Shown here piece by piece: positions 8,539 through 45,782 of a DNA stretch of 45,782 nucleotides. The notes below the pieces were generated by a model. That model was given only the letters and a program-made list of their open reading frames with translations, ran no database searches and had not been told where the DNA came from. The stretch's first letter is position 1; every line of letters begins with the position of its first letter. This stretch comes from a virus, in the UHGV virus genome UHGV-0242872, one strand, 5' to 3'. Made by a program: the position numbers and the translations under genes.

Positions 8539-8730
8539 CTACTTCTCTTTCACGTTCGAGTTGCAAGCCCAGATTAAAATGAATACCCACGGCAACAGAA
8601 TCCACCCGAGAAATAAGTTAGCCATGAATATCGCCAGCTTTGCTTTATGGTTACGCATATGTGCCACCAAAAACGGGATAAAATAAACGGCTACAAAAAT
8701 AATTAAGAAGAACATAGTGATACCGGTCAT
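8539..8730 (-). CDS. small two-TM membrane protein, Imm-like (possible superinfection exclusion)
   Basis: ATG 8730 with AGGAG SD; two hydrophobic helices; C-terminal NLFLGWILLPWVFILIWA. Confidence 0.5.
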   Translation of the reverse strand: MTGITMFFLIIFVAVYFIPFLVAHMRNHKAKLAIFMANLFLGWILLPWVFILIWACNSNVKEK

Positions 8731-8772
8731 AACATAACTCCTGATTTGAGATAACATCGTTGGTGTAAGTGA

Positions 8773-8801
8773 ATAGTACGCTATTATATTGGGGTGTGCA
8801 A
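8773..8801 (-). promoter_or_regulatory. sigma70-like promoter TTGCAC-N17-TACTAT for moron cassette
   Basis: -35 at 8801-8796, -10 at 8778-8773 on minus strand; AATAG-N4-CTATT palindrome 8772-8785 overlaps the -10. Confidence 0.55.
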
Positions 8802-8908
8802 GTAGTGTGCTAGAATAATTTTGCGCCTAGTGTCGCACACGAAAAGCGGGTGGTTCCCGTCTGGCGCATTTCCTTTAACCAGTAACCTCTTAACCAAAGG
8901 ATTAAAGA

Positions 8909-28405: not shown

Positions 28406-28621
28406 ATGCAACCATCTGAACTAGGCATTCGTGTAGAACAACGCCGTAAAGAACTCGGCATCTCCCAGCGCCGTCTGGCTGTCCTGGCCGGTGTCTCCCA
28501 GGGCGCGATTAACCAGCTTGCACTTGGGGTAACTCAGGATGTCCGCCCGGCGACGCTGTTTAAACTGGCGGAAGTGCTTGAAGTAGACGCCAAGTGGTTG
28601 GCGTTAGGTGAAGGGGCTTAA
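28406..28621 (+). CDS. Cro/XRE-family HTH transcriptional regulator
   Basis: 71 aa with HTH ISQRRLAVLAGVSQGAINQL; AAGGAG SD; sits in a divergent promoter region. Confidence 0.8.
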   Translation: MQPSELGIRVEQRRKELGISQRRLAVLAGVSQGAINQLALGVTQDVRPATLFKLAEVLEVDAKWLALGEGA

Positions 28622-31773: not shown

Positions 31774-31802
31774 TTGACTTTTACTAAGAAATGTGCTAAG
31801 CT
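31774..31802 (+). promoter_or_regulatory. strong extended -10 promoter TTGACT-N17-TGcTAAGCT driving structured RNA copy 1
   Basis: -35 at 31774-31779, TG at 31794-31795, -10 at 31797-31802. Confidence 0.6.
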
Positions 31803-31808
31803 CCACCT

Positions 31809-31915
31809 GAGCTTGTGAAGTATGAACAAGCGACCGCGGTGCGGCAGGAAACGGAGCGGTGCGTCAGCACTGAGTGTAGTGTCGCTGCCTGCATTCGGAA
31901 GGGCCATAATCTATT
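31809..31915 (+). ncRNA. structured RNA element, copy 1 (function unknown; candidate antitermination or regulatory RNA)
   Basis: about 107 nt starting at predicted TSS; paralogous to 45138-45245; hairpin GCUUGU-N9-ACAAGC; compensatory base-pair changes between copies; no ORF. Confidence 0.45.
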
Positions 31916-32003
31916 GTAAATCCCGTCTAAATAACCCAAGTCACTAATAATTAAAAGTTTCTATAGTTGCCGTAAGCAAGGTAGAGAGTACTTCACTCCG
32001 CTG

Positions 32004-32082: not shown

Positions 32083-32111
32083 TTGCACACCCCAACATAA
32101 TAGGATACTAT
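32083..32111 (+). promoter_or_regulatory. sigma70-like promoter TTGCAC-N17-TACTAT (rightward early)
   Basis: palindrome AATAG-gata-CTATT 32099-32112 overlaps the -10. Confidence 0.6.
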
Positions 32112-32145
32112 TCACTTATCGAAACGAGACAGAGGAGTGAGGGTT

Positions 32146-33206: not shown

Positions 33207-33235
33207 TTGCACGCTAAGATAGAATAGGCTACTAT
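33207..33235 (+). promoter_or_regulatory. sigma70-like promoter TTGCAC-N17-TACTAT
   Basis: palindrome AATAG-gcta-CTATT 33223-33236 overlaps the -10. Confidence 0.6.
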
Positions 33236-33245
33236 TCATTTACAC

Positions 33246-40573: not shown

Positions 40574-42046
40574 ATGTTAACTATGAACGGTCAGAATCAG
40601 GGTGTTAAGACAAAACACCGGGAATGGCTGCACCACTTCGATAAATGGCAGAAGGTGCGCCACGCGCTGGAAGGCGACCTTATCCGCTATCTGCGCAACG
40701 TTGGGAAGAATGAGCCGGACCCGACCTACGCGGCACAGCGCCAGGAAGAATACGAGAACGGCGCTATCTGTTACAACTTCACCAAGAGAACGCTGGCGGG
40801 GATGGTCGGCAGTGTCATGCGCAAAGACCCCGAGCAGATTATACCGCCTGAACTGGAGTACCTGTTACGTAACGCGGACGGTTCTGGTGTCGGGCTGTGG
40901 CAGCACGCACAGGATACGCTAATGGAGATTGATTCGGTGGGTCGTGGCGGGTTGCTGGTGGACGCCCCGGAGACTGCTGCCGCAACGGCAGCTGAACAGA
41001 ACGCAGGGTTATTAAACCCGGTCATCGCATTCTACACCGCAGAGAACATCATCAACTGGCGACTGACCCGCGTCGGTTCTGTTAACCGTGTGACAATGGT
41101 CGTGTTGCGTGAAGTGTGGGAATACTCAGAACCTGGAGCAGAGTTCGAAACTAAGTTCGGTGAACAGTACCGCGTCCTTGACCTGATTGATGGTCGCTAC
41201 CGCCAGCGCATTTACCGTTTCGACGCCGAGGGCGGCGCTCAGGGCGAAGTAATCGAAATCTTCCCGGAACTCGGCGAACAGTTACGCGGCAAAATCCCGT
41301 TCACGTTCATTGGTGCAAGCAACAACGATGCAACCATTGACGATGCACCTTTGCTGCCGTTGGCTGAGCTTAATATTGGGCATTTCCGCAACAGTGCAGA
41401 CAATGAGGAGTCCAGCTTCGTCGTAGGCCAGCCTACTCTGTTCATCGCCCCCGGTGAGAACATGAGCATGGAACAATGGAAAGAAGCCAACCCGCACGGA
41501 GTGCGTATGGGGTCACGTTCTGGCCATAACATCGGTTACGGCGGCAATGCGTTTCTGGTCCAGGCCGGTGAGAACAACCTAGCCAAGCAGAACATGCTGG
41601 ATAAAGAGAATCAGGCCATCCAGATTGGTGCGCAGCTTATCACCCCTACCCAGCAAATCACCGCTGAATCAGCCCGCCTGCAACGTGGTGCCGACACGTC
41701 CGTTATGGCGACAATTGCACGTAACGTAAGCATGGCGTATACCGATGCGCTAAAGTGGGTTGCGGGTATGCTTGGGCTTAGTGACGGCACTGAAATTGAG
41801 TTCAAACTGAACATGGAGTTCTTCCTGCAACCAATGACCGCCCAGGACCGCACTCAGTGGATGGCGGATATTAACGCGGGCCTGTTACCGGCTACCGCTT
41901 ACTATGCCGCGTTGCGTAAGGCGGGGGTAACTGACTGGACAGACGAGGACATTCAGAACGCTATCGAGGATGCGCCGCTGCCGGTGGGTGCGGTCACTCC
42001 GGTAGCAGGCGAAATCCCGCAGTCGGTGCAGCAACAGCAGGAGTAA
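40574..42046 (+). CDS. portal protein
   Basis: 490 aa immediately after terL, AGAGGA SD. Confidence 0.8.
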   Translation: MLTMNGQNQGVKTKHREWLHHFDKWQKVRHALEGDLIRYLRNVGKNEPDPTYAAQRQEEYENGAICYNFTKRTLAGMVGSVMRKDPEQIIPPELEYLLRNADGSGVGLWQHAQDTLMEIDSVGRGGLLVDAPETAAATAAEQNAGLLNPVIAFYTAENIINWRLTRVGSVNRVTMVVLREVWEYSEPGAEFETKFGEQYRVLDLIDGRYRQRIYRFDAEGGAQGEVIEIFPELGEQLRGKIPFTFIGASNNDATIDDAPLLPLAELNIGHFRNSADNEESSFVVGQPTLFIAPGENMSMEQWKEANPHGVRMGSRSGHNIGYGGNAFLVQAGENNLAKQNMLDKENQAIQIGAQLITPTQQITAESARLQRGADTSVMATIARNVSMAYTDALKWVAGMLGLSDGTEIEFKLNMEFFLQPMTAQDRTQWMADINAGLLPATAYYAALRKAGVTDWTDEDIQNAIEDAPLPVGAVTPVAGEIPQSVQQQQE

Positions 42047-42072
42047 AGAAAAAGGCCCCGTTATGGGGCCTT
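42047..42072. terminator. hairpin terminator (stronger on minus strand)
   Basis: AGGCCCC-GTTAT-GGGGCCT; U-tract lies on the minus-strand side. Confidence 0.55.
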
Positions 42073-42075
42073 AGC

Positions 42076-42249
42076 TTATGCGTCTCTACTCGCCAGATAA
42101 TCACAGCGGGCTATGGCTAAGTCTAAGCTACTGTATGCGCTATCTGTTTTAGCGTGGGTGAACCCCGAAATCATTACGTGGTACACGCCTTTATCGTTTA
42201 GAACCCAGTATTTACCATTTTCGTGCATTATGTCTTTTTCTTTGAACAT
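42076..42249 (-). CDS. hypothetical protein (57 aa)
   Basis: ATG 42249 with AGGAG SD; driven by minus-strand TTGCAG-N17-TACTAT promoter. Confidence 0.4.
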   Translation of the reverse strand: MFKEKDIMHENGKYWVLNDKGVYHVMISGFTHAKTDSAYSSLDLAIARCDYLASRDA

Positions 42250-42296
42250 TTTTCATCTCCTGTTTAAGTTAACTGAATAGTACCCTATTATATTGG
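42246..42296 (+). repeat. 51-nt direct repeat, copy 1 (promoter, operator and SD of a minus-strand small gene)
   Basis: 50/51 identical to 44977-45027. Confidence 0.8.
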
Positions 42297-42305
42297 TGTC
42301 TGCAA
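42277..42305 (-). promoter_or_regulatory. sigma70-like promoter TTGCAG-N17-TACTAT
   Basis: minus strand; palindrome AATAG-tacc-CTATT 42276-42289 overlaps the -10; part of 51-nt repeat. Confidence 0.5.
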
Positions 42306-42349
42306 ATATTATTTTTATGCGTTACACTGGCGATACTACAGGAGGGCAC

Positions 42350-44287
42350 ATGAGCTTACTTACATCCCTAATTAGCCACCAGATATGGCTGCAACGCACC
42401 GCATCCGGTGAAGTGAAAGACCTCACACCATTCATTCAGGAGATGCGGGATGAAATCAAACGGCAAGTGCTGTTATTCGGTGACGACGGTCGTAGCACCG
42501 CGCGACTGAATAAACTGTTACGCGACCTTGAAGAAGCACTGACCGGGCTTACAGGTGACTGGCAAACAAAGCTGACAGAAGACCTTAAGGAACTGGCGGC
42601 ATATGAGGCTGAGTGGAACGTAAAGACACTGACCGCCAACGTAGCTGCGGAATTTGTTACACCTACCGCTGAACAGGTGTGGGCTGCTGCCGAGTTTCAA
42701 CCGTTATCGTTGAGCGACAAGCCTGTTGACTTCACTAAGCTGATGTCAGGTTGGGGTGAAACCGAAGTCGCGCGCCTGGTAACGGGTGTTAAGATGGGCT
42801 TTGTTCAGGGTAAGACAACACGGCAGATTGTTACAGAAGTAGTCGGTAAAGGCGGGCTGGCTGACGTATCAGAGAAATACGCCGCTACCGTAATCCGCAC
42901 TGCGCTGTCTCACGTGTCCAACGAAGCCCGCAATGAAACATACCGCCAGAACGACGATATCATCGAGAAGTACGAATGGGTGTCAACGCTGGACAGCCGT
43001 ACCAGTACAACGTGTTTCACGGCTGAAACAGAATTAGCGCCCATCGCGGGGATGGACGCGGTAATGCGCGGACTCTATTCAGGAAAAATCTTTACCATCG
43101 AACTTTCCAACGGCGAGAAGTTCAGTGGCACCCCGAAACACCCTGTACTCACGCAATACGGATGGACTCCGCTTGATGAACTCGATCCAACTAAGCATGT
43201 CTTGTATACCACTGTTGACAAAGTGACTGTGCTCGAAACAGTGAAGAACATAAACATGCCAGCCAGAGCGGATTATATTTTTAATACGCTCGCTGATTTC
43301 CCCATCAGGAAAATGGTAAGCACGAGTCCCGCGGCAACAGATTTCTATGGCGATGGAGTGGGACTCAATGGCAAAATCGACATTGTACGGACCGATTGCA
43401 AACTGCGGAACTACGTCCACGCCAGCGGAATTAAACAATTCAAAAGCGAGGGTTTCAGTCTTATTCATAGCGCCGCTTTGCTGTCGGACGATAGCTCTGG
43501 CGATTTTCTCCTCCGGGGTGAATGTCCTGTGAGTGTGCCCGCGCTTAGCGAGGCCAAGTGTTTTGACCATAGAATAGAAAACTGTTTTGCTTACTTGGGT
43601 CCTTCTTATGCACTCAATAGGCGGAACGCCGGACTCGAACAATTCTATAGCCCTTTTTTGATTCAAAATGGTGTCGTTAGAAACCCAACCACGGGGTCGA
43701 TCATGCATGAGTCCGAGCTTCTTGAGAAATGTTGTTACCGTGGTGGTAGTGACGCCGTAATTCTTGGCTATGATGCTGGCGGGAGTGCCATCTCGGTACA
43801 AAGAACAAATATCATCCGCATAAGCGTCGAGTTTAGAACGTGCCATGTTTATACCCTCTCTAGTAGTCAAGGATATTATACAGCAGGTAGTGCGATAGTC
43901 AAGAATTGCAGGGCCAGAGACGGGATGACGTGGGAAATTGGTAAGGGGCCGATGCCCCCAGCCCATCCGAACTGCCGGTCGTGCACGGCTCCGGTAATCA
44001 GTTCCGAGTTCGACTTCCTCGATAAAGGCGCAAAACGCGCGGCTAAAGGCGCGGAAGGTGGCACTCAGGTAAGCGCAGACACCACTTACTACGAGTTCCT
44101 TAAACAACAACCGGCGTGGTTTCAGGACCAGGCGCTCGGCCCGGTGCGAGGTAAGATTTTCCGTAACAGCGGTATATCGCCGGAAGAGTTTCGCGTAATA
44201 TCTGTAGATGGTTTCGGGAATCCGCTCACGCTTAAGCAGATGGCGGAACTCGATAAACGTGTTGCTGATTATCTGAAAGGGGAATAA
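42350..44287 (+). CDS. head morphogenesis protein (Mu F / SPP1 gp7-like) interrupted by an in-frame intein
   Basis: ATG 42350 with AGGAGGG SD; exteins join to give DSRTSTT|CRARDGMTWEIGKGPMPPAHPNCRSC; precursor 645 aa, predicted mature 347 aa. Confidence 0.75.
   Translation: MSLLTSLISHQIWLQRTASGEVKDLTPFIQEMRDEIKRQVLLFGDDGRSTARLNKLLRDLEEALTGLTGDWQTKLTEDLKELAAYEAEWNVKTLTANVAAEFVTPTAEQVWAAAEFQPLSLSDKPVDFTKLMSGWGETEVARLVTGVKMGFVQGKTTRQIVTEVVGKGGLADVSEKYAATVIRTALSHVSNEARNETYRQNDDIIEKYEWVSTLDSRTSTTCFTAETELAPIAGMDAVMRGLYSGKIFTIELSNGEKFSGTPKHPVLTQYGWTPLDELDPTKHVLYTTVDKVTVLETVKNINMPARADYIFNTLADFPIRKMVSTSPAATDFYGDGVGLNGKIDIVRTDCKLRNYVHASGIKQFKSEGFSLIHSAALLSDDSSGDFLLRGECPVSVPALSEAKCFDHRIENCFAYLGPSYALNRRNAGLEQFYSPFLIQNGVVRNPTTGSIMHESELLEKCCYRGGSDAVILGYDAGGSAISVQRTNIIRISVEFRTCHVYTLSSSQGYYTAGSAIVKNCRARDGMTWEIGKGPMPPAHPNCRSCTAPVISSEFDFLDKGAKRAAKGAEGGTQVSADTTYYEFLKQQPAWFQDQALGPVRGKIFRNSGISPEEFRVISVDGFGNPLTLKQMAELDKRVADYLKGE
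43079..43846 (-). CDS. HTH plus DUF559/Vsr-like PD-(D/E)XK endonuclease encoded antisense inside the intein
   Basis: ATG 43846 with GAGAGGG SD; two HTH-like segments; endonuclease core YNVDFAIESHSIAIEICCRG...GWHVYVLH; track ORF extends to 44110. Confidence 0.6.
   Translation of the reverse strand: MARSKLDAYADDICSLYRDGTPASIIAKNYGVTTTTVTTFLKKLGLMHDRPRGWVSNDTILNQKRAIELFESGVPPIECIRRTQVSKTVFYSMVKTLGLAKRGHTHRTFTPEEKIARAIVRQQSGAMNKTETLAFELFNSAGVDVVPQFAIGPYNVDFAIESHSIAIEICCRGTRAYHFPDGEISERIKNIIRSGWHVYVLHCFEHSHFVNSGIQDMLSWIEFIKRSPSVLREYRVFRGATELLAVGKFDGKDFS
43875..43902 (-). promoter_or_regulatory. consensus sigma70 promoter TTGACT-N16-TATAAT inside the intein 3' end
   Basis: -35 at 43902-43897, -10 at 43880-43875 on minus strand, about 30 nt upstream of the antisense ATG. 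Confidence 0.6.
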
Positions 44288-44748
44288 TGATGGGCTTTTT
44301 CAAAGTAACTGACGTACCGTCTCGTCGCGTAGTCCAGTACGCCCGCGTGTCTGGCTCTGGCGAGAACGTGGTATTTATTGAGGACGAAAGTGTACTCGGT
44401 ACACCGGTAGATGATATGCCGTTTGCAGATAAAACCGGTATTGCGTTGCCCGCCGCCGGTATGCTTTATGAAATTCCGTATCTGGCGGACGCTGGCGACG
44501 TGTATTTCTCTGCGCAACCGCAGGACGCTGAACTGGCGGGCGGCAGCGCAACCATCACTGTCGAGGTTAAGGCAGGCAAAGCGCCGTATTCTCTGACCTG
44601 GTACAAAGACGGTAAGGAAGTGGTGAATGCGCCTGAGGAGGCTCTGTCTCTGACGGTTAATGCGGTCGGCGAATACTTCGTTAAAGTTACTGATGCCGAT
44701 GGAGTAGAGGCGGTAAGCAAAGCGGCGAAGGTTACTAAGCCAGAATGA
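44287..44748 (+). CDS. Ig-like domain protein (virion decoration candidate)
   Basis: 153 aa; APYSLTWYKDGKEV...EYFVKVTDADG Ig-like signature; TAATG overlap with upstream gene. Confidence 0.55.
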   Translation: MMGFFKVTDVPSRRVVQYARVSGSGENVVFIEDESVLGTPVDDMPFADKTGIALPAAGMLYEIPYLADAGDVYFSAQPQDAELAGGSATITVEVKAGKAPYSLTWYKDGKEVVNAPEEALSLTVNAVGEYFVKVTDADGVEAVSKAAKVTKPE

Positions 44749-44752
44749 TAAA

Positions 44753-44778
44753 AGGCCCCGTAAGGGGCCTTAGTTTTC
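44753..44778 (+). terminator. intrinsic terminator
   Basis: AGGCCCC-GTAA-GGGGCCT hairpin followed by TAGTTTTC. Confidence 0.7.
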
Positions 44779-44980
44779 AACGGAATCTTGTGTTTAAATC
44801 CTGCTCATGGACAACCCTCAGAACAGTGTCATAATCCCCGTATCTTCCAGGTTCAAATATATCTAATGCCTTGTAAGCAGACATTGCGTCAGGGAAAACC
44901 TGCAGAACCTTTTTAACCCGGCACAAGTCACCGTCGAACTCTTCATCGAACTCTTGAACTACTTCGCAAATTGCATACAT
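44777..44980 (-). CDS. hypothetical acidic protein (67 aa)
   Basis: ATG 44980 with AGGAGG SD; driven by minus-strand TTGCAC-N17-TACTAT promoter. Confidence 0.45.
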   Translation of the reverse strand: MYAICEVVQEFDEEFDGDLCRVKKVLQVFPDAMSAYKALDIFEPGRYGDYDTVLRVVHEQDLNTRFR

Positions 44981-45027
44981 TTTTCACCTCCTGTTTAAGT
45001 TAACTGAATAGTACCCTATTATATTGG
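44977..45027 (+). repeat. 51-nt direct repeat, copy 2
   Basis: 50/51 identical to 42246-42296; the pair brackets the head-morphogenesis/intein/Ig-like segment. Confidence 0.8.
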
Positions 45028-45036
45028 GGTGTGCAA
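45008..45036 (-). promoter_or_regulatory. sigma70-like promoter TTGCAC-N17-TACTAT
   Basis: minus strand; palindrome AATAG-tacc-CTATT 45007-45020 overlaps the -10; part of 51-nt repeat. Confidence 0.55.
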
Positions 45037-45089
45037 ACTATTTATTTACGTATTCCAGTTATTCCACCGAATTGTAAATGTTGGAATAA

Positions 45090-45103
45090 ACTATTCGAAT
45101 AGT
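45090..45103. promoter_or_regulatory. perfect 14-bp palindrome ACTATTCGAATAGT abutting the -35 of the RNA copy 2 promoter
   Basis: same half-sites as the AATAG-N4-CTATT operator but everted. Confidence 0.35.
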
Positions 45104-45131
45104 TGACTTTTCACTAAAAATATGATAAGCT
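45103..45131 (+). promoter_or_regulatory. strong extended -10 promoter TTGACT-N17-TGaTAAGCT driving structured RNA copy 2
   Basis: -35 at 45103-45108, TG at 45123-45124, -10 at 45126-45131. Confidence 0.6.
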
Positions 45132-45137
45132 CCACCT

Positions 45138-45245
45138 GAGCTTGTGAAGTATGAACAAGCGACCGCGGCGCGGGCAGGTAACGGAGCGGGACGTAAGTCC
45201 TGAGTGTAGTTACGCTGACGCGTTCGGAAGGGCCATACTCTATTG
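45138..45245 (+). ncRNA. structured RNA element, copy 2
   Basis: first 43 nt identical to copy 1 from the -10 onward; inner stem GGAC-GUAA-GUCC replaces GUGC-GUCA-GCAC of copy 1. Confidence 0.45.
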
Positions 45246-45311
45246 CTTGTGTAAAAAGTAACTGGTTTACTGAGATTACGCCGTTTCTATGTTTAAATGA
45301 TAAGGACTAGC

Positions 45312-45339
45312 GCCCCGCTTTAAGGCGGGGCTTTACTTA
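45312..45339 (+). terminator. intrinsic terminator downstream of RNA copy 2
   Basis: GCCCCGC-TTTAAG-GCGGGGC hairpin followed by TTTACTTA. Confidence 0.65.
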
Positions 45340-45355
45340 TCGAGAAAGGAGAAAC

Positions 45356-45742
45356 ATGAATCTTAAAGCAACCGTCGTAGCAGGAGCATGTTTCATCATC
45401 CTGGCTTACACACACGGCATTTATCAGTACCGCAGCGGCTGGCACGAAGGCCGCGCTAATCTCGTTTCGCAGCAACAGCAGAAAGCGCAGGCTGAGTTAG
45501 CGAAGAAAACACAACGGCAGCAGCAGGACGAATCGAAGGCAGCCGCCGCTGACAACGAAGGCAAGACGAAATCAGAGGTGATTACCCGTGAAGTCGTTAA
45601 GTACATTAGAACGCCTGGTCGCAGCGTGTGCACTTTTGACCCTGAGCGCGTGCAGCTCAAGTCCCGCGCCGTCGCAAACGCCAATTCCATCCCCGGATAT
45701 GACAATGATGCAGCCGCCGTGCAAGCTGGCGCTGCCAAGTAG
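45356..45742 (+). CDS. i-spanin (Rz-like)
   Basis: AAAGGAG SD; N-terminal TM helix then Gln/Ala-rich periplasmic region; embedded +1 lipoprotein ORF. Confidence 0.6.
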   Translation: MNLKATVVAGACFIILAYTHGIYQYRSGWHEGRANLVSQQQQKAQAELAKKTQRQQQDESKAAAADNEGKTKSEVITREVVKYIRTPGRSVCTFDPERVQLKSRAVANANSIPGYDNDAAAVQAGAAK

Positions 45743-45782
45743 CGACGCCGATGAGGATTTGGCTATCGACGTTCAGAACGCC
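45588..45782 (+). CDS. o-spanin (Rz1-like lipoprotein), +1 frame inside Rz, partial at window end
   Basis: GTG 45588 with GAGG SD; lipobox LSAC; Pro-rich; no stop before window end. Confidence 0.5.
   Translation, partial: MKSLSTLERLVAACALLTLSACSSSPAPSQTPIPSPDMTMMQPPCKLALPSSDADEDLAIDVQNA

Follow-up and report, generated by a model that had tools for sequence, protein, structure and literature searches.

The mobile regulatory cassettes known as PeSL (promoter-early stem-loop) have been described in T4-type phages (Arbiol et al. 2010, PMC2839356; Comeau et al. 2014, PMC4122927). The element considered here, a 51-nt sequence present as two direct repeats in the viral genome UHGV-0242872 (45,782 nucleotides, analyzed at its full length and hereafter referred to as the window), may be regarded by analogy as a moron or PeSL-like regulatory cassette, T4-type PeSL cassettes and morons being its closest analogues. 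The window represents, in ~45.8 kb, the complete genome of a siphovirus of E. coli that is Kagunavirus-like (Guernseyvirinae) and has a GC content of 50.6%; its region 41500–45782 is matched by 416 phage records, the best match being fEg-Eco06 (94.6%).

The likeness to PeSL resides in a short repeated module combining an AT-rich upstream stretch, a predicted sigma-70-type early promoter, an inverted repeat over the −10/spacer, a Shine–Dalgarno (SD) sequence and a start codon; these features are found repeatedly in this order 5′ of variable open reading frames (ORFs), small ORFans of plastic regions, and are tied to ORF insertion, deletion and replacement between close relatives, although the early timing of expression is presumptive. 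On the other hand, the stable, often G/C-rich stem-loop that acts as terminator or attenuator inside a PeSL cassette is not found within the module. The inverted repeat of the module is an AT-rich palindrome of 5 bp that forms no stable hairpin (−2.8 kcal/mol, z 0.06) and more likely serves as operator for a protein, and the predicted terminator, a GC-rich hairpin, stands apart from it at the opposite end of the cargo. Furthermore, whereas PeSL cassettes occupy hyperplastic early regions of large myoviruses, the present units are found in small siphoviruses, in antisense orientation within two fixed gaps of the late head operon.

Morons were reportedly described by Juhala and colleagues and by Hendrix and colleagues, both in 2000; in their classic form they belong to temperate phages and are expressed from the prophage. 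The units described here resemble them in being extra genes with their own predicted promoter and terminator, placed between conserved operon genes, absent from collinear relatives and of lower GC content (42.5 and 43.1% for the two genes of the window as compared with 52–56% in the flanking genes). They differ from morons in that the phages are virulent, the promoter would be the phage's own early promoter provided with an operator, and a standardised frame is reused for many cargos at two slots. In lambdoid phages, conserved boundary or linker sequences are said to lie at module junctions (work of Clark and colleagues from 2001 being an example), and here too mosaic joints cluster at short conserved intergenic sequences, the difference being that these correspond to a defined promoter/operator/leader present twice in one genome in direct orientation. 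A likeness to integrons, which is an analogy only, may be seen in fixed expression slots that exchange diverse promoterless ORFs; unlike integrons, there is neither an integrase nor attC/attI, every unit arrives with, or retains, a promoter of its own, and the exchange presumably relies on general or annealing recombination.

The explanation that we consider likely is that the repeats are portable early promoter/operator/leader modules of swappable antisense cargo units, and that the frames shared by these units serve recombination. The module would comprise an AT-rich upstream stretch, a TTGCA(C/G) −35, a 17-bp spacer, a TACTAT −10 lying under AATAG-N4-CTATT, a leader of ~20 nt, the SD and an ATG; it would be the phage's own early-type promoter, read by host sigma70, and would probably carry the operator for the phage's 71-aa XRE-family helix-turn-helix (HTH) protein. 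In the Guernseyvirinae (Kagunavirus and Jerseyvirus) optional accessory genes of low GC content would occupy, in antisense orientation, two fixed gaps of the late head operon as units made of a terminator (3′ frame), one or more genes and the module (5′ frame). The module would give the cargo early, co-regulated expression and the terminator would block antisense read-through into the portal or Hoc gene, whereas the shared frames, usable as short homology because they are alike at both sites and across phages, would offer 25–80 nt for homologous recombination between co-infecting genomes, thereby replacing the cargo at one site or moving it between the two.

The repeat pair and its predicted regulatory elements

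A sequence-only reading had assigned 50/51 identity to positions 42246–42296 and 44977–45027, and the comparison bears this out, the sole mismatch (T/C) being at the 11th base. Ungapped similarity reaches 81 nt at 85% (42246–42326 vs 44977–45057), the spacing of the direct repeats is 2731 nt, and the number of 51-mer pairs with ≤1 mismatch expected by chance in a 45.8-kb sequence of the window's composition is ~3e-20. Each repeat abuts the start codon of a minus-strand ORF, and, as the same reading had stated for the two genes, the products (57 and 67 aa) are unrelated, their sole match being 8 residues long (E 0.04). The first repeat lies in the gap between the portal and head-morphogenesis genes (site 1, window 42047–42349) and the second in the gap between the Hoc and spanin genes (site 2, window 44749–45355); the elements involved are the following:

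42052..42072, minus strand: site-1 intrinsic terminator hairpin, left frame of the cassette unit (terminator scan; −15.4 kcal/mol, z −3.4)
42076..42249, minus strand: site-1 cargo gene, 57 aa, PHROG 20712, GC 42.5%
42246..42326, minus strand: repeat copy 1, 51-nt core 42246–42296; homology of relatives starts at 42247
44752..44771, minus strand: site-2 intrinsic terminator hairpin (terminator scan; −15.9 kcal/mol, z −4.0)
44777..44980, minus strand: site-2 cargo gene, 67 aa, GC 43.1%
44977..45057, minus strand: repeat copy 2, core 44977–45027; homology of relatives starts at 44978
8766..8804, minus strand: third, partial copy of the promoter/operator module, 87% identity

On the minus strand the order of elements in each copy is an AT-rich stretch, TTGCAG or TTGCAC, 17 nt, TACTAT, a leader of ~20 nt, AGGAG, 5–7 nt and ATG. 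In copy 1 the start codon (CAT on the strand shown) is at 42247–49, the SD AGGAGA is the reverse complement of 42256–61, the −10 TACTAT occupies 42282–42277 and the −35 TTGCAG 42305–42300, with AT-rich sequence upstream; in copy 2 the −10 is at 45013–45008 and the −35, TTGCAC, at 45036–45031, the other elements being as in copy 1. Both copies contain the palindrome AATAGTACCCTATT (42276–89 and 45007–20), whose inverted repeat AATAG-GGTA-CTATT overlaps the TACTAT −10. Thus, of the promoter, operator and SD that had been placed inside each repeat, the start codon, SD, palindrome and −10 are indeed there, whereas the −35 belongs to the 85% extension immediately beyond the 51-nt core. A role of the palindrome as RNA hairpin or terminator was rejected on the grounds of its fold, the energy given above having no significant stability. 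The predicted termination signal is a stable hairpin 3′ of each small gene, AAGGCCCC-loop-GGGGCCTT, which on the minus strand is succeeded by a U-run.

When 33 rows of filled sites (27 site instances once redundancy is removed) are aligned, conservation reaches ≥90% for the core TGAATAGTACCCTATTATATTGG..GCAAA, the leader CTCCTGTTTAAGTTAAC is conserved at ≥70%, and the sequence past the start codon is unrelated. Several leader variants exist, one of which, variant (b), is of the CGAAACGAG..GGAG type and occurs in the cargo cassettes of relatives. Distal to the −35, the sequence is site-specific and conserved across genomes. These data bear on the idea that the two copies stem from a recent duplication within this genome, to which we assign hardly any probability: their 50/51 identity does exceed that of most site-1/site-2 pairs of other genomes, but many relatives carry the module at either site independently of the other, the sequence beyond the −35 follows the site rather than the genome, and the module alignment suggests that the two copies of the window are not sisters, their near-identity arising because both use the commonest leader variant.

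The third module copy heads a minus-strand island within the tail-gene region, whose first gene (8539..8757, minus strand) encodes a superinfection-immunity-like protein (PF14373, E 1.8e-13). The stretch 8820–8884 (plus strand), situated in the divergent intergenic region that adjoins this copy, gives an Rfam match to int-alpA RNA (36.6 bits, gathering score 35.8); no Rfam family is matched by the repeat or by the duplicated element that adjoins its second copy (see below).

Cargo units at two sites of the late head operon

The occupancy of the two sites was scored in a census of 90 non-redundant related loci, 75 of which came from IMG/VR and were retrieved through the head-morphogenesis protein, this protein-anchored retrieval having replaced an exact-pattern module scan of IMG/VR that gave just 8 loci. 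In the relatives each site is either empty or holds a low-GC unit made of terminator, gene(s) and cassette. The cassette is present at 21 of the 80 site-1 and 39 of the 68 site-2 instances and lacking at 59/80 and 29/68, respectively; judged by ORFs, the empty sites amount to 37/80 and 25/68, a few filled sites being mis-scored as empty. Comparison of fEg-Eco06, Bas70, fFiEco02, EF2-1 and Shashou indicates that empty sites are without module and filled sites have it: the empty site 1 (fEg-Eco06, Bas70, fFiEco02) is a gap of 69 nt with neither gene nor module, and the empty site 2 (EF2-1, Shashou) a gap of 342 nt which lacks the module and keeps the neighbouring duplicated element. Genes are therefore present or absent between conserved operon neighbours of collinear relatives, as expected of morons. 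The left edge of nearly all filled sites consists of the same hairpin-type terminator followed by the stop codon of the cargo. In the 69-nt form of empty site 1 (26 loci; e.g., L001 ~2087–2100) a one-mismatch palindrome, TATAGTATGCTATT, immediately follows a plus-strand terminator and is accompanied by neither −35 nor SD nor gene; it may be what is left of a lost unit or else a regulator site in its own right.

The 57 cassette-proximal genes of the census fall into 21 families, four of which are found at either site:

clamp-like cargo, 173 aa: site 1, 4; site 2, 9
94-aa protein cargo: site 1, 4; site 2, 3
adenine methyltransferase cargo: site 1, 1; site 2, 2
family of the window's 57-aa gene: present at site 1 and at site 2

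The sequence-only reading had offered, as one of two possibilities, that the repeats are duplicated regulatory cassettes for small divergent genes, and this is supported by a module heading at least 21 unrelated families at two sites. Beyond the census, the module was located at 351 places in 157 phage records, among them those of Salmonella Jerseyviruses in which it heads an adenine methyltransferase. As to the 173-aa cargo (L011 3371–3892, L012 2763–3284, L014 3982–4503), it is annotated as "DNA polymerase III sliding clamp" or "RusA-like Holliday junction resolvase" depending on the record, and matches both PHROG 3007 and, partially, a clamp.

Concerning the two cargos of the window, PHROG and Pfam assign no function to the 57-aa or the 67-aa product, and a large protein search with the former yielded no named homologues. 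In the census the 67-aa gene is confined to site 2 (7 loci), whereas the 57-aa gene occupies site 1 in L009/L052. At site 2 it is found in at least seven contigs other than the window, comprising L005/L047 and six further metagenomic loci (L141, L142, L144–L147) in which it lies between Hoc and spanin; in L143 it is beside Hoc with another neighbour not identified as spanin. A Klebsiella phage homologue of the 57-aa gene has a different promoter without the palindrome. In this phage (L148 760–800; RCIP0045, Webervirus-like) the leader of the homologue, ..CATCGAAACGAACTGAGGAGG.., resembles the Kagunavirus early-promoter leader CGAAACGAG, promoter and operator being different.

BLAST comparison revealed that the homology of many relatives starts exactly at 42247 (site 1) and 44978 (site 2), different annotated genes adjoining at that point; since homology begins exactly at the cassette, the repeats are best understood as portable regulatory modules of moron-type genes. 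A mosaic boundary at the repeats, anticipated from the sequence, is thus borne out by the relatives, but the exchanged part is the small cargo to the left of each repeat, which also passes between the sites. For instance, fBC-Eco01 carries at site 1 a clamp-like unit that shares 97.1% identity with the site-2 unit of fFiEco02 and only 89.5% with the site-1 unit of Shashou. Some cassettes are hybrid, with site-1-type single-nucleotide polymorphisms of the −35 on site-2 flanks, or with one cargo and its SD joined to two different leaders, and, as with PeSL, the joints of indels and replacements between relatives coincide with the cassettes. The means for such exchange may be provided by the phage, an exonuclease and a Gp2.5-like annealing protein being annotated in the collinear relative Bas70. 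The repeats probably serve as recombination joints in the exchange of cargo, and the swaps would result from homologous recombination.

Several points weigh against the explanation preferred here. The conservation of the module could reflect selection on function alone; the frames are short (~25 nt for the terminator and 50–80 nt for the module); Jerseyvirus site-1 cargos of 216–225 aa and more distant relatives lack the motif; and, with 94–99% conservation of the HTH regulator in 37 contigs, there is no regulator/operator covariation to use. The site-1 and site-2 modules of one genome are no more alike than modules of different genomes, so that there is no signal of gene conversion, within-genome homogenisation not being seen in a comparison by ungapped identity, a measure blurred by the variable SD–ATG spacing. 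Finally, a simple sigma-70 consensus scan calls no promoter in the cassette, since the −35 scores 3/6 and the −10 4/6; a minus-strand promoter is nevertheless proposed in view of the conservation of TTGCA, TACTAT and the 17-bp spacing.

Some of these points are shared by an alternative that we hold to be unlikely, namely that the modules resemble each other only through selection on a common promoter/operator/leader, with no part in recombination, the units arriving by illegitimate recombination or nuclease-driven events. With this agree the coincidence of the invariant core with the functional elements, the lack of homogenisation between the two modules of one genome, the existence of several leader variants and the fact that some cargos are themselves nucleases (HNH/EndoVII-like, 179 aa). 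Nevertheless, the ~18-nt leader CTCCTGTTTAAGTTAAC, which is under no obvious constraint, is common to at least six unrelated cargos, the unit boundaries recur at the same frames (stop codon/terminator and start codon/SD), hybrid modules are jointed at SD, operator and −35, and the four cargo families found at both sites have interleaved alleles.

If this explanation is extended, the terminator and promoter/operator/leader frames could together represent an integrase-free, standardised "expression slot" system of virulent Guernseyvirinae in which early-expressed accessory genes are shuffled by short-homology recombination at stop codon/terminator, SD, operator and −35, with 2.7-kb circles or defective deletions as by-product of the direct-repeat arrangement; the shuffling would span the two slots, phages and genera, and involve a methyltransferase, a clamp-like protein, a lipoprotein, a nuclease and many ORFans. 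This wider picture is tentative and, on balance, doubtful. The comparisons indicate by what route, and at which positions, accessory genes would be gained and lost by small virulent phages of E. coli and Salmonella that are used in therapy and as synthetic-biology chassis, some of these genes having likely anti-restriction and superinfection-exclusion functions, and point to two natural, tolerated insertion slots whose putative ready-made early expression module could be used for engineering.

The palindrome family and its candidate regulator

The palindrome of the repeats belongs to a genome-wide family of 8 exact copies, all intergenic and 5′ of genes in matching orientation, or 12 copies at ≤1 mismatch, as against 1.39 expected at one mismatch. 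Two classes can be distinguished. Class A, TTGCAC-17-TACTAT, comprises 8772(−), 32099(+), 33223(+), 42276(−) and 45007(−), whereas class B, the near-consensus TTGACA-17-TATAGT, comprises 21763, 25720 and 28318, all (−) and heading replication genes, with the palindrome occupying the spacer in the opposite orientation. Two features outside the repeats are of particular relevance:

32099..32112, plus strand: class-A promoter palindrome heading early-region small genes; sister site at 33223–33236
28406..28621, plus strand: 71-aa XRE-family HTH protein (HTH_3, E 2e-12), candidate binder of the palindrome

The leader of the 32099 promoter, CGAAACGAG..GGAG, matches leader variant (b) of the cargo cassettes of relatives, and, because class-A promoters head early-region genes (32099, 33223), the cassette appears to be of the phage's general early promoter type.

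The region upstream of the HTH gene carries two palindromes, one exact (28318–31) and one with a single mismatch (28362–75). In the 37 related contigs the arms of the palindrome are invariant while its four central bases vary; conserved arms, a variable centre and an unstable hairpin favour a protein-binding site over an RNA structure. The arrangement fits the pattern of a Cro-type operator, that is an inverted repeat over core promoter elements, in several copies, including some upstream of the regulator gene itself, and regulator and motif co-occur even in a contig (L077/L135) whose head gene is only 66% identical. On these sequence patterns, the palindrome is probably the operator of the 71-aa XRE-family HTH protein, and this protein and the AATAG-N4-CTATT sites constitute a candidate regulatory circuit.

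A different function has been attributed to the same motif in fBC-Eco01, whose consensus tgAATAGTa-ccTATTat-T was found by PHIRE and presented as seven "phage RNA polymerase" promoters (PMC9825357), the feature table of OM272052 also labelling the motif as phage promoter. In our opinion, the idea that a phage-encoded RNA polymerase uses the motif as its promoter is close to refuted: the annotation of the collinear Bas70 genome includes no RNA polymerase gene, the motif lies at fixed spacing within sigma-70-like −35/−10 pairs, including the near-consensus TTGACA-17-TATAGT in the spacer of which it is reversed, and PHIRE detects just repeated 20-mers. The operator interpretation would correct this published reading.

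The head segment, its intein and the element beside repeat 2

The segment enclosed by the repeats contains, in addition to the site-2 unit, two genes of the conserved backbone:

42350..44287, plus strand: head-morphogenesis gene (Mu F/SPP1 gp7-like) with intein 43013–43906, outside the exchangeable unit
44287..44748, plus strand: Hoc-like Ig-domain head decoration gene

The other possibility raised by the sequence-only reading was that the repeats are homology arms by which this ~2.7-kb segment (head-morphogenesis gene with intein, Hoc-like and 67-aa genes) is deleted, circularised or exchanged. The presence of nearly identical direct repeats (50/51 over 51 nt, 2731 nt apart), the recombination genes annotated in Bas70 and the precedent of T4-type PeSL cassettes lying near each other, which recombine into mini-circles (PMC2839356), would be in line with such a role, but the relatives do not bear it out and it is very improbable. 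Indeed, the conserved head genes are kept in every locus that can be scored for them: the 75 IMG/VR loci are no test of the loss of the head-morphogenesis gene because they were retrieved by homology to it, but all 23 loci retrieved independently of that homology keep both head-morphogenesis and Hoc genes, and all 61 IMG/VR loci scorable at site 2 keep Hoc. In a search of 50,697 phage records the simulated repeat-to-repeat deletion junction was found as one place in 0 of the 515 matching records. Identity profiles display many breakpoints inside the segment (for instance, at the intein boundaries) and none that treats it as a block, nor is there any sign of block exchange in the 16 other loci with cassettes at both sites. 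At most, rare non-viable deletion products or circles may occur in a lysate.

The intein is absent from most relatives, although L001 and L006 have it. At its boundaries, 43013 and 43906, the level of identity to relatives changes abruptly: the intein of the window is 99% identical to those of L001/L006, the stretch that follows it, up to and including Hoc and site 2, is 99% identical to the intein-less Bas70, and the 5′ extein is only 78–95% identical to L001/L006 or Bas70, a distribution which suggests that recombination or homing tracts end at the intein.

The opposite strand of the intein contains an ORF of 255 aa (ATG at 43846, stop at 43079–81) preceded by an SD and a near-consensus promoter, TTGACT-16-TATAAT (43902–43875). 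Over the overlap, none of the 255 codons of the sense frame is TTA, CTA or TCA, which would be stops in the antisense frame (chance probability ~9e-4), and the same two-strand layout is found in Jerseyvirus BPS11Q3, in Aaphi23 and in one metagenome contig, with 25–45% protein identity. The structure predicted for the product consists of two HTH modules and an alpha-beta nuclease core (predicted local distance difference test, pLDDT, 73.7). The ORF is an antisense gene for a putative Vsr-like homing endonuclease. Same-strand precedents are offered by the Vsr-like free-standing genes of "fractured genes" (PMC2677866) and by an out-of-frame hidden HNH (PMC11855218); a limited literature search found no description of an antisense, dual-coded endonuclease within a contiguous intein.

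Beside the second repeat lies one of two paralogous elements of ~120 nt (31774–31921 and 45103–45250, plus strand), each behind a TTGACT-17-TAAGCT promoter. They are conserved at the nucleotide level but differ by an indel of 1 nt that disrupts the annotated 36-aa ORF from one copy to the other, and the apical hairpin displays compensatory changes, with no Rfam family matched. The copy adjoining repeat 2 is the one retained in the empty site 2, and the two elements are a candidate pair of phage small RNAs (sRNAs).

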